From the NCBI GenBank assembly GCA_965243135.1, contig OZ251539.1, positions 2,304,001 to 2,368,000 on the forward strand: a DNA stretch of 64,000 nucleotides, given 5' to 3'. Below are positions 1 through 57,374 of the stretch, in pieces. Position 1 is the stretch's first letter, and each line of letters begins with the position of its first letter. The translations under genes and the position numbers were made by a program. The notes beneath the pieces were generated by a model, which saw only the letters and a list, made by a program, of their open reading frames with translations, had not been told where the DNA came from and did no database searches. This stretch comes from Alphaproteobacteria bacterium. Lineage in GTDB: Bacteria > Pseudomonadota > Alphaproteobacteria > MPNO01 > UBA830.

Positions 1-270
1 ATCTATTGCTGCAACGCGTTCCGGTAACCGTTCAATTAATGGTTATGGCGCTGACTTTCGCCTTTCTGTTGGCGTTGCCGTTGGGCGTGCTATGCGCTTT
101 TCGAAGCAACCGCGTCATTGATCGATGCATTTCGGCCGTCGCGTTTGGAATCGTGGCAACGCCGCCGTTCGTAATGGCGATCATGTTTGTCTGGGCGTTC
201 GCCGTCGTTCTGAAAATTTTACCGGCCGCCGGACATGCTCCTCTGTTCCTGGGCGTCTGGGAAAACGTGA

Positions 271-434
271 GTAAGCGTTCGGTCGTGGGGTGGCGACGTT
301 GAGGCCTGCCTCCAGGCAGGGGCTTCAACCAGACGTCCTTGACCGGGAGGGCGCGTTCGTTTCGGGTACTGCCGCGGCCTACGCCGCCCCTCTGGTTGGC
401 ACCCGGCAACAGGTTTCTCGCGAAGTCCCGGAGA
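271..434 (-). repeat. Degraded inverted copy of the element's right end, including the 3' end of the DUF4338 gene
   Basis: Minus strand reads ...RNERALPVKDVWLKPL... versus ...RKERALPVKDIWLKPL... at ~2957-3005. A second GTAAGCGTTCGGT starts at 435. Confidence 0.85.
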
Positions 435-521
435 GTAAGCGTTCGGTTGCGAAGCGGGCTGTCGAGCCAGGCGAATCGCCCAGGCCTGGACACTCTTCTT
501 TTGTTCTTGTATACGGCTGCC

Positions 522-2168
522 ATGGCGGTCGAATCTGCACGCACGCTTTCCGGGACCGAGCTGTCGGGCGACGGCCAAGCTCTGGCTGCGGCATGCCGAG
601 CGAATGCGGCTCTCTGCCAGGCGCTGGAAAGCGCACTCGATAAAGCGGAGAAGTTTCGCCGCGACGCCGAGAGGTGGCAGGGAGCTTTCCACCGGGCGAT
701 GGCGCTGATTAGAATCCTGAAAAAGAGACGCGAGGCGCCGCCCCGAGAGACGGCAGAGAACGAGAGTCTGAAGTCCCGCAGCCGCAGGTTTGCCCGGGAG
801 TTGTTCGGGCGCCGCAGCGAGCGGCAGCCTACGGCAACCGGTCGACGCCGGGGGCGCAGTCAGGGAACGCCGTCGCACGGCCGCACGCCGCACCCCGAGC
901 TGCCCGTTCGCGAGGAGGAGTCGCTTCCGGACGAGCGCACGTGTCCGGACTGCGGCAAGGCCTGGGTCTCGAACGGTTGGAAGGACACGGATCTCATCGA
1001 GACCAGGACCGTCACCTATGTCCGGAGGATTCGACGGAAGCGGCTGCGCCCGACCTGTACCTGCCGACCGGAAAAGGAGGCCGTCGGCCCGGCTCCGGCG
1101 CGGCTGTTTCCGAACACTCGGTACGGAGTTTCCGTCTGGGCGTACGTCCTGGCGGAGAGGTACGGCCTGCACCGTCCGTTGCGCTCGGTCTGCCGCGCGC
1201 TGGGTCAGCACGGGCTTGCCATTGCGCCCGGCACGTTGGCGGACGCTCAGCGGGGATTCCTGCGACTGTTCGAGCCGCTCGACGATGAGATCTCCCGGCG
1301 CCTGTCGGAGGCGCCGGTCGTTCACGGCGACGAAACAGGGTGGTGGATACGGGAGTTGGGCGAAGAAGACGGCGGCAACGCTCGCGCCTGGGCATGGATC
1401 GCCCGGTCGGCGGACGCGGTTCGCATCGTTATTCTGCCGTCGCGCAGCGCGGAAGCCGCCCTTGAACTGTTCAGGGGGCTCGGCTCGCCCGAACAGGCGG
1501 CTCACCTGGTCTGCGACCGCTACTCCGCCTACCGGAAGCTGGCGCGCGTCATGGAAGGGTGCATCGTCCTTTCATATTGTTGGGTCCATGCCAGACGGGA
1601 CTTCATCAACCTTGAGACCGGCTACCCGAACCTCGCGAAGTTCGCCCAAAAATGGCTTCGTCACATTGCGGCATTGTACCGACTCAACGCCAGGCGTCTG
1701 GCGTGTCCGGGCAACGCCGCCGCCCAGCGGCGGCTCGCGAGATTCGCCGGAGCGTTCTTCGCGGCGGCGAAAAAGGCACGGGACGCGCTTCCGGAGAGCG
1801 CGGCGCAACGCGGCCCTCTGGACTCCCTGCTACGCCACCGCGACGGCCTGACAGTGTTCGTCGACAACGCAGACGTTCCCATGGACAACAACCCCGCCGA
1901 ACGCGGCCTGCGCGGCCTCGCGATCGGCCGGAAGCTCTCGTTCGGGTCGCATAGCGTGGACGGAGCGCAGTTGGCGGGCATGCTCTATTCCATCTTCGGC
2001 ACGCTCGAGATGGCCGGCGTCTCGCCGTACCGCTGGCTACTCGGTTATCTCGATGCCTGCGCCCGGCATCGCGGTCCGCCGCCCGAAGGCCCTGCTGCCT
2101 GGCTGCCGTGGGGCGCAGGCGAGGAGCGTCTCCGCTCCTGGCGTCCCGCTCTCCCCCAAGGACCGTGA
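522..2168 (+). CDS. tnpC: IS66 DDE transposase (TnpC type)
   Basis: CPDCG...CTC zinc finger, VHGDETGW, LVCDRYSAY, CWVHARRDF, DNNPAERGLR..IGRKLSFGS. Start uncertain (ORF open from 339). Confidence 0.92.
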   Translation: MAVESARTLSGTELSGDGQALAAACRANAALCQALESALDKAEKFRRDAERWQGAFHRAMALIRILKKRREAPPRETAENESLKSRSRRFARELFGRRSERQPTATGRRRGRSQGTPSHGRTPHPELPVREEESLPDERTCPDCGKAWVSNGWKDTDLIETRTVTYVRRIRRKRLRPTCTCRPEKEAVGPAPARLFPNTRYGVSVWAYVLAERYGLHRPLRSVCRALGQHGLAIAPGTLADAQRGFLRLFEPLDDEISRRLSEAPVVHGDETGWWIRELGEEDGGNARAWAWIARSADAVRIVILPSRSAEAALELFRGLGSPEQAAHLVCDRYSAYRKLARVMEGCIVLSYCWVHARRDFINLETGYPNLAKFAQKWLRHIAALYRLNARRLACPGNAAAQRRLARFAGAFFAAAKKARDALPESAAQRGPLDSLLRHRDGLTVFVDNADVPMDNNPAERGLRGLAIGRKLSFGSHSVDGAQLAGMLYSIFGTLEMAGVSPYRWLLGYLDACARHRGPPPEGPAAWLPWGAGEERLRSWRPALPQGP

Positions 2169-3037
2169 GCGGCAGCCCCCGCCGCTACTGCGGGCGCGAC
2201 TTCTCCGAGGACGAGGTCGACATGATCCGCGGCCTGATCGCGAGGGGCGGCCTCCACCGCCGGGCGCTGTCGCGGGAGGTCTGCCGCCGCCTCGACTGGC
2301 GCAAGCCCGACGGCGGCCTAAAGGATATGAGCGCGCGCGTCGCCATGTTGCGCATGCATCGCGACGGCGTGATCGTCTTGCCGCCGCCAAGGCGCGCGCC
2401 GGTCGTCCGCCGTCCGCTCGTGCCCGGTCCCGCGACCGACAGGCCCCCGTTCCCGACCCCCGAGCGTCTCGCCGATATCCAACCCGTCGCCGTTGAGCCC
2501 GTCCGGAACGCGGGCGAAGGCCGCCTCTGGAACGAGTTCGTCGCTCGCTACCACTATCTCGGCTATTCGACGCTGCCCGGCGCGCAGATGCGATACTTCG
2601 TTCGGGCCGCCGGAGGCGAACCCCTCGCCGTCCTCGGCTTCGGCGCCGCGGCCTGGAAGATCGCGCCGCGGGACAAGCTTGTCGGGTGGGATCCCGAGAC
2701 CCGCCGCCGCAACCTGCCTCTCGTGGTCAACAATGCAAGGTTCCTGATCTTGCCGTGGGTCCGGATCAAAAACCTCGCGTCCTGCATCCTTGCCATGGTT
2801 GAATGTCGCCTGCCCGACGATTGGGAAGGCCGCTACGCGTTGCGCCCGGCCCTGATGGAGACCTTCTGCGAGAGCACGCGCTTCGAAGGAACCTGCTACC
2901 GGGCCGCCAACTGGACCAAGGTCGGCAAAACGCAGGGCCGCGGCAAGCTCGATACCCGGAAAGAACGCGCTCTCCCGGTCAAGGACATCTGGCTGAAACC
3001 CCTGCGCCGGGACTGGAGGCGGCTCCTCAATGAATAG
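2165..3037 (+). CDS. DUF4338 (DruA-like, Mom-like GNAT) domain protein with N-terminal HTH-like region
   Basis: LWNEFVARYHYLGY, NNARFLILPWV..NLASCIL, LMETF..RFEGTCYRAANW..VGKTQGRG. GTGA overlap with the tnpC stop. Confidence 0.85.
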   Translation: MSGSPRRYCGRDFSEDEVDMIRGLIARGGLHRRALSREVCRRLDWRKPDGGLKDMSARVAMLRMHRDGVIVLPPPRRAPVVRRPLVPGPATDRPPFPTPERLADIQPVAVEPVRNAGEGRLWNEFVARYHYLGYSTLPGAQMRYFVRAAGGEPLAVLGFGAAAWKIAPRDKLVGWDPETRRRNLPLVVNNARFLILPWVRIKNLASCILAMVECRLPDDWEGRYALRPALMETFCESTRFEGTCYRAANWTKVGKTQGRGKLDTRKERALPVKDIWLKPLRRDWRRLLNE

Positions 3038-3497
3038 GCCATCACCCCACGACCGAACGCTTACAAACGTGAAGCACTTCATTTTGCCGATGCTGGCTAT
3101 CGGATTAGGCGAAGTGCCCATATTCCTGCGCGTTCTGCGGGTCGACATGATTTCGACATTGCAGGAGGACTATATCGCGCTGGCCAAGGCCAAAGGCCTT
3201 TCCACGGGCCATATACTATTTCGACACGCATTGCGACCTTCCTCGTTTACGCTCGTTACCGTGCTCGGATTGCAAGTCGGCCGATTAATCAGTGGACTTG
3301 TGATTACCGAGAACATTTTTGCATTGCCCGGCATAGGAAAGCTGTTGATCGACTCAATAGATGCTCGCGACGTTCTAGTGGTTCAAGCCATAGTGACGTT
3401 CTCGGCCATAGCTTACGTCGCCATCAATCTGAGCGTCGATTTTCTCTACGCAGTTCTGGACCCTCGCGTGAACCGACGAACGAAAGGCGCTTGAAAT

Positions 3498-57007: not shown

Positions 57008-57374
57008 TCCTTGTAAGCGTTCGGTCGCGGGGCGACTTGCCCGTTCCGTCTTCAGTCCCGCAGGCCCACGCTGATTTTGCGTTGCATTTCCGGGTTTCCT
57101 CAGGCTCTCGCGAGCCGCCCATGGCCGAACCCTGGAGGTTCGACGGCGGAAGTCCGCCTCGCTCGACCGGACGACGCTTTCGTTCGACGGAACCGCAGCC
57201 TGGAGTTCGGGCGTTTCGCCGCTTGCGGCGCATGTGCGCGCCGCCCCTGCTGCCGCCTCAAGGACAGAGCCTGGCAATGAACGCCGCCGCCCCGTTCTCG
57301 CCTTGACGCGCAAACGTCTCTCCCTCTTAACGATCTCATCGGCGCAGCGGATACTGTCTCTGGAAAGGACGCTC

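Follow-up and report, generated by a model that had tools for sequence, protein, structure and literature searches.

The usual view of insertion sequences is that they code for no more than cut-and-paste movement requires. In the IS66 family, whose hallmarks are an 8-bp target duplication and inverted repeats starting 5′-GTAA, the canonical elements (IS66, IS679 and ISRm14) are organised as tnpA-tnpB-tnpC, and the ISBst12 group gathers IS66-type elements with tnpC only. Here we analyse a 64,000-nt stretch of the genome of an Alphaproteobacteria bacterium (contig OZ251539.1, positions 2,304,001 to 2,368,000; hereafter the window), which harbours an active IS66-family element composed of tnpC and a second, coupled gene for a DruA-like protein (DUF4338, PF14236). 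Both the IS66 family and its branch without tnpA and tnpB are already known. The literature searched did not describe an IS66 branch that has a Mom-like accessory gene as a conserved feature, nor a wider link between DUF4338 and transposases. Our full-text literature search returned no paper linking DUF4338 or DruA to transposons; ISfinder entries lay outside this comparison.

To our knowledge, the Mom protein of phage Mu is the sole known DNA-aminoacylating enzyme. As described in PMC13219725, Mom transfers glycine from Gly-tRNA(Gly) to the N6 of adenine in double-stranded DNA and is an anti-restriction enzyme. Residues H58, Y59, R111, S124, D149, R151 and Y159 are reported there as important, and deletion of a helix-turn-helix (HTH)-like insertion between the last strands abolishes activity. 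DUF4338 itself is named as a GNAT domain, found as an N-terminal fusion of DndF, in PMC10853773.

An active IS66-family element with two genes

The element occupies 2,794 bp of the window and is organised as follows.

263-270, no strand: target-site duplication, left copy (AAACGTGA); the same 8-mer lies at both element ends
271-3064: insertion sequence, IS66 family
271-378, plus strand: left inverted repeat (IRL), ~100 bp, with a terminal 22-mer (271-292) and a subterminal arm (316-368)
522-2168, plus strand: tnpC, IS66-family DDE transposase of 548 aa (PF03050, NF033517; the ATG start at 522 is putative)
2165-3037, plus strand: DruA-like (DUF4338, PF14236) gene, 290 aa (PF14236 E 3.7e-43, 148 bits, cut-off 27)
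2945-3064, minus strand: right inverted repeat (IRR), with a subterminal arm (2953-3005) and a terminal 22-mer (3043-3064)
3065-3072, no strand: target-site duplication, right copy (AAACGTGA), matching the left 8-mer

TnpC matched PF03050 (E 1.9e-50, 172 bits for a cut-off of 23.1) and NF033517 (E 5.4e-79, 266 bits for a cut-off of 180), and its residues Cys141, Cys144, Cys179 and Cys181, as well as residues of the DDE region, are invariant among 25 relatives. Membership of the IS66 family is given by this TnpC-type transposase, by 8-bp duplications at 8/8 genome copies and by ends starting with GTAAGCGTTCGG. The initial annotation, which ran from 522 to 3037, had both genes right, and missed the true ends of the element and the target duplication.

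The host genome, assembled as one contig of 6.10 Mb and 98.8% complete, contains eight copies of the element that are 100% identical across the whole 2,794 bp. All eight carry their own 8-bp target duplication, and the eight 8-mers are different. Because there are eight identical full copies, each with a different duplication, the element is active and transposes with 8-bp duplications. Logan contigs from other runs start exactly at position 271 (X1, X2 and X6) and show loose ends at 3064, and in four runs contig depth on the element was several-fold above that of the flanks; no joined empty site was found among the contigs of the four runs. Relatives of the element that are diverged (81-91%) or fragmentary are numerous in this genome as well.

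Only two genes lie inside the inverted repeats, in agreement with the initial annotation, which had noted the absence of tnpA and tnpB. None of five further long open reading frames (ORFs) in the element had a Pfam match, and the distance from the left end to tnpC is only ~250 bp, leaving no space for tnpA and tnpB. PF05717 (IS66 TnpB) gave no match across the whole genome; it was found in 3 of 14 control genomes. Since the element has neither tnpA nor tnpB and the genome has no IS66 TnpB, the element moves without canonical IS66 helpers. Transposition is carried out by TnpC, possibly together with the DruA-like partner.

The DruA-like gene is an integral part of the element

The GTG start of the DruA-like gene (2165-2167) overlaps the TGA stop of tnpC (2166-2168) as GTGA, an overlap that had already been noticed in the initial annotation. 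An AAGGA motif is located at 2158-2162, three bases 5′ of the GTG, and use of this start is backed by the N-termini of 33 homologues. At the other end of the gene, the element stops 27 bp after the DruA-like stop codon, and the subterminal arm of IRR (2953-3005) is contained in the coding region. Since its 3′ end lies within the right inverted repeat, the DruA-like gene belongs to the element, and IRL consequently carries an inverted copy of the last codons of the gene. The inverted repeats had been recognised in the initial annotation; their ~100-bp length and their inclusion of the 3′ end of the gene had escaped it.

We then turn to relatives. A scan using one genome per species gave 440 stretches, the best 80 of which were resolved into 75 loci in 26 assemblies labelled Alpha- or Gammaproteobacteria, Bryobacterales, Binatia or unclassified, often with several copies per genome. 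The pairing of tnpC with DUF4338, which the initial annotation had proposed to survey across genomes, was observed without exception: a tnpC homologue or remnant was found directly upstream on the same strand at 75/75 loci. This upstream tnpC was one continuous match at 63 loci, although one of these (L017) has an internal stop, and it was truncated, interrupted or split at the other 12. We compared the junction in 84 DruA-like copies of full length: there is an overlap with the tnpC stop of 4 nt (ATGA or GTGA) in 67 and of 76 nt in 2, and the remaining 15 begin 4 nt beyond it.

Among these relatives the DruA-like protein is more strongly conserved than TnpC, at 57-69% vs 41-54% identity to the respective window protein. 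The GTAAGCGTTCGG tips were kept, by exact match, at 10 of 23 relative loci, and long inverted repeats were also kept. In L021, for instance, the inverted-repeat arms are 146 bp long at 98%, TnpC is 885 aa and there is no tnpA or tnpB. Seven diverged paralogues from the host genome all had an open DruA-like frame, with ratios of nonsynonymous to synonymous substitution (dN/dS) of 0.15-0.34 relative to the window copy. Diverged copies of this kind are located at positions 5954246-5956660, 3599882-3602494 and 4531680-4534195 of the host contig (G000:C1), among others.

Taken together, these results show that the DruA-like gene is no cargo but an integral, selected and co-translated component of the element. 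A complex prediction for TnpC and the DruA-like protein scored 0.00 and carries no weight either way.

The DruA-like domain is a partner of transposases in general

PF14236 is a large family, with 8,832 clusters at 50% identity (E <= 0.001) and, in the 159-508 aa range, >7,216 clusters at 90% identity. To census fusions, 29 long representatives were scanned for a second domain. The DruA domain was fused to IS66 TnpC in 4 of the 29 and accompanied by the Tn5-type Tnp_DNA_bind domain in 10, three of which also have the Tn5 dimerisation domain. It was found with DDE_Tnp_1 alone in two, and in single cases with an ISAzo13 DDE domain, an IS630-type DDE_3 domain, DUF6788 or a nucleotide cyclase; the remaining nine had no second family. 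Fusions to other transposase families were absent from the initial annotation.

Distribution is uneven. The host genome has 70 PF14236 matches vs 0 in 14 control genomes, and in a sample of the phylum a match at E <= 1e-20 was obtained in 17 of 301 genomes, the host genome counted. We regard the DruA-like domain as a general partner of transposases and not as a Druantia component.

Further elements present in multiple copies in the host genome measure 2.3-2.4 kb and have inverted repeats of their own. Seven of these loci are listed here; in all of them the DruA domain is either fused to an IS4/Tn5-like transposase (Tnp_DNA_bind, DDE_Tnp_1, Dimer_Tnp_Tn5) or located immediately 5′ of one.

L089-L095, on G000:C1: around 4203525, 4018330, 1217026, 694963, 973340, 2134973 and 3771360

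In the plasmid collection, relatives occur in only two records, both from Thiodictyon. One of these is a solitary DUF4338 gene (L088; NZ_CP020372.1 282572-283450) with integrase, IS91 and IS4 genes beside it, within an interrupted DUF2235 gene. The other is a DUF4338-like stretch that lies beneath an ISAs1 transposase annotation (NZ_CP020371.1 261768-262283).

With respect to Druantia, the PADLOC DruA model (PDLC00001) matched the window protein at E 2.3e-4 and only over residues 133-184, corresponding to model positions 212-266 of 675, and none of ten large window ORFs tested against the Druantia models gave a match. Because the element ends 27 bp downstream of the gene and no Druantia model matches these ten ORFs, this is not a Druantia operon: the window DruA-like gene is a transposon module and not Druantia defence, as the initial annotation had argued. 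Three MZB/DUF1998 matches were found in the genome, none adjoining a DUF4338 gene. One of them (G000:C1:2939704-2939940) lies inside an open frame of 1,826 aa that probably codes for a YprA-like helicase belonging to a defence system.

The C-terminal domain of the DruA-like protein resembles Mom

The AlphaFold2 model of the DruA-like protein (mean predicted local distance difference test score, pLDDT, 86.8) suggests a winged-helix-like domain (residues 1-75), a proline-rich linker (~76-102) and a Mom-like GNAT domain (103-290). Residues 103-290 have the GNAT fold in this model, with 192 chains at Z >= 8 in VIA-align, nearly all of those listed being acetyltransferases. Mu Mom came first in both structure searches. 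With Foldseek, 8bv8 was retrieved at E 1.1e-5 and generic GNATs followed from 8e-5; with VIA-align, 8bv8_B was retrieved at Z 15.4 (root-mean-square deviation 3.4, 168 residues) and the next chain at Z 12.8 over 142 residues. As judged by this model, the nearest solved structure to the C-terminal domain is that of phage Mu Mom. The Mom-type GNAT resemblance put forward in the initial annotation, together with its suggestion of a comparison with Mom and GNAT structures, is therefore borne out at the level of predicted fold.

For a comparison of residues, we used the numbering of PMC13219725, which equals that of the AF083977 protein + 10 and agrees at all eight residues checked. The DruA-like protein is ~14-15% identical to Mom. 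hhalign aligned 18 columns of the family with a single Mom sequence and 148 columns with a 32-sequence Mom alignment, the latter at a probability of only 6.7%. In this second alignment, five of the seven important Mom residues are paired with invariant or nearly invariant residues: H58/Y59 with H130/Y131, S124 with S206, D149 with E236 and Y159 with Y245. The motifs YHYLG, NLAS and GTCYRAANW, singled out in the initial annotation, thereby fall opposite H58/Y59, S124 and Y159, respectively. A GRG motif and a basic C-terminal tail are paired as well. Conservation was examined across a set of 154 diverse members, consisting of 150 representatives and 4 transposase-fused paralogues. H130 was found in 149/149, R192 in 143/148 and S206 in 139/148, while position 236 was acidic in 119/145 and Y245 was present in 118/145.

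Residues 1-75 folded alone gave a pLDDT of 88.4. The PaaX winged-helix family was matched by 5 of 34 relatives, with a best E of 0.01.

Two further lines also point to Mom. Sub-threshold matches to Pfam Mom (PF25680) were obtained for 2 of the 34 relatives, the best at E 0.0056. In the ESM-Atlas, searched with residues 100-290 and with PF14236 clusters excluded, the nearest three named clusters were all Mom, at 0.89, 0.87 and 0.87.

A possible role in nucleic acid modification

The reading that we prefer is that the DruA-like protein is an accessory enzyme which acts on nucleic acid beside the transposase, as an acyl or aminoacyl transferase. In its favour are the activity of the element, the integration and selection of the gene, the Mom-like fold and residues, and the transposase fusions; we put its probability at roughly 0.45. 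TnpC and the two-domain DruA-like protein are made together through translational coupling, and the accessory enzyme would act alongside the transposase, on or near element DNA. The N-terminal domain would bring the protein to DNA and the GNAT domain would transfer an acyl or aminoacyl group to nucleic acid in a Mom-like manner; such a mark would license, limit or protect transposition. The CoA (coenzyme A)-binding loop of GNAT proteins is usually glycine-rich. Because the DruA-like family and Mom both carry N-x-x-S at this position, the donor may be other than acetyl-CoA.

Several observations weigh against this preferred reading. The window protein had no match to Pfam Mom PF25680, and a PDB sequence search with the family profile did not find Mom, its best match being at chance level (E 1.2). 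ESM-Atlas scores under 0.9, such as those of the Mom clusters, count as leads only. Apart from its low probability, the hhalign result does not place R111 and R151 of Mom opposite R192 and R239, which match by eye only, and it leaves a gap of ~28 residues at the HTH-like insertion of Mom, most of which appears to be missing from the DruA-like protein; at this site there is a short loop with an invariant T-x-G-R-G (pLDDT 54). The N-terminal domain leans to a winged helix at non-significant scores (best Z 5.6; best Foldseek E 0.6). GNAT folds serve many substrates, and a shared fold is no proof of function. The literature search brought up no biochemical or modification data on any DUF4338 protein. 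Finally, tnpC consists of out-of-frame pieces in several of the diverged copies whose DruA-like frame is intact. This would also fit a function independent of the transposase, and the DruA-like gene may be retained after transposase decay.

Among the alternatives, the GNAT domain could be a protein acyltransferase without any nucleic-acid chemistry, tuning transposition through acetylation of a nucleoid protein, another host factor or the transposase itself. Among the characterised GNATs of the fold lists, the majority act on proteins or small molecules as N-acetyltransferases (Z 11-12.8), and both the coupling to tnpC and the transposase fusions would suit a cis regulator of the neighbouring protein. 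Nevertheless, no protein acetyltransferase comes as high as Mom in either structure search, N-x-x-S stands in the family at the site of the glycine-rich CoA loop of GNATs, and a DNA-binding-like N-terminal domain would be superfluous for such a role. We consider this explanation unlikely.

An equally doubtful alternative is that the gene serves the host or replicon as cargo, in defence or anti-restriction, either by Mom-like protection or as a DruA-like sensor. The position of the gene speaks against it, since the inverted repeat takes in its 3′ end and its start/stop overlap with tnpC is conserved. So does the presence of the domain within transposase polypeptides of several unrelated families, and the match to the PADLOC DruA model is weak and partial (52 residues), with no Druantia partner in the window. 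On the other hand, the Pfam family is named for Druantia DruA, DruA-like frames are open where tnpC looks broken, one Thiodictyon plasmid has a DUF4338 gene annotated on its own, and Mom is an anti-restriction enzyme according to PMC13219725.

A non-catalytic adaptor, in which the GNAT fold would serve only as a scaffold for binding DNA or tRNA or for oligomerisation and would stand in for TnpA and TnpB in transpososome assembly, appears quite improbable. It would account for transposition of the element without these two proteins, and the weak winged-helix likeness of the N-terminal domain, with the PaaX matches of some relatives (5/34, best E 0.01), would be in keeping with it. However, putative equivalents of the Mom catalytic set are nearly invariant in the 154 diverse members, as expected of an enzyme. 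A toxin or addiction function (a GNAT toxin acetylating aminoacyl-tRNA) was set aside in view of the lack of an antitoxin-like partner, the dozens of copies and the transposase fusions.

Returning to the accessory-enzyme reading, a far-reaching extension of it would be that DUF4338 proteins at large are transposon-borne nucleic-acid acyl- or aminoacyl-transferases that mark DNA covalently, whether at element ends, donor or target, and draw on charged tRNA or some other donor than CoA. They would form a control or protection layer shared by at least five DDE transposase families, and this chemistry would also account for the modification or self-marking step in type I Druantia (DruA). In this general form the proposal is speculative and we would not expect it to hold.

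The analysis brings to light a module that is widespread, has kept its enzyme-like residues and is joined to transposases of several unrelated families. If the DruA-like protein is active, transposons would gain a chemical activity not previously described for them, and Druantia DruA would gain a concrete, testable function; the finding hints at chemical marking of nucleic acids by some transposons.

Element ends and insertion site

The terminal inverted repeats, with tips beginning GTAAGCG, consist of GTAAGCGTTCGGTCGTGGGGTG on the left (271-292) and the reverse complement of this 22-mer on the right (3043-3064). The repeat search returned two IRL/IRR pairs, one of 28 nt at 93% and one of 53 nt at 89% (316-368 vs 2953-3005). 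The subterminal arm continues the terminal arm after indels, three of which appear in a global alignment of both ends. A scan for promoters and terminators within the element gave no convincing signal.

Further features are located inside the element and on its flanks.

435-449, plus strand: direct copy of the terminal 15-mer (GTAAGCGTTCGGTTG) with 1 mismatch, internal, upstream of tnpC
3-270, plus strand: ABC-transporter permease gene (BPD_transp_1), 5′ part, covering PF00528 profile positions 1-55
3065-3494, plus strand: the same ABC-transporter permease gene, 3′ part, covering PF00528 profile positions 47-183 (E 1.7e-30)

The copy at 435-449 lies 164 bp inside the element and may be an extra transposase-binding site. 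At <=2 mismatches the terminal 15-mer occurs 4 times in the window, vs 0.22 expected, and 0/100 shuffles gave 4. An exact copy (GTAAGCGTTCGGTCG) is present at window positions 57013-57027, followed by a similar GC-rich stretch; the vicinity has no matching end in the opposite orientation. A related IS66-type element may have left this copy behind as a solo end or remnant. On both flanks of the element, the ABC-transporter (ATP-binding cassette) permease gene is interrupted by the insertion.

Comparison with known systems

The window element shares with canonical IS66 elements the transposase family, the end sequence and the duplication length. It differs from them in the accompanying genes: canonical elements have tnpA and tnpB upstream of tnpC and the window element is without both, and its accessory gene, which follows tnpC, bears no relation to canonical TnpA or TnpB. 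The ISBst12 group comes closer, with an IS66-type DDE transposase, GTAA ends, an 8-bp duplication and no tnpA or tnpB, as in the window element. Members of that group have a single ORF, whereas the window element has a second, coupled gene whose 3′ end lies inside the ~100-bp inverted repeats.

Type I Druantia DruA belongs to the same Pfam family, PF14236, as the window protein. In type I Druantia it is accompanied by DruB, DruC, DruD and the DruE helicase in an operon, while the window gene sits between tnpC and the end of the insertion sequence. As for Mom, hhalign sets its H-Y, N-x-x-S, acidic residue, G-x-x-Y-x-A-x-N-[FW], G-R-G and basic C-terminal tail against those of the DruA-like protein. 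The DruA-like protein has an extra N-terminal domain and is encoded by an insertion sequence, in contrast to Mom, which is encoded by a phage.

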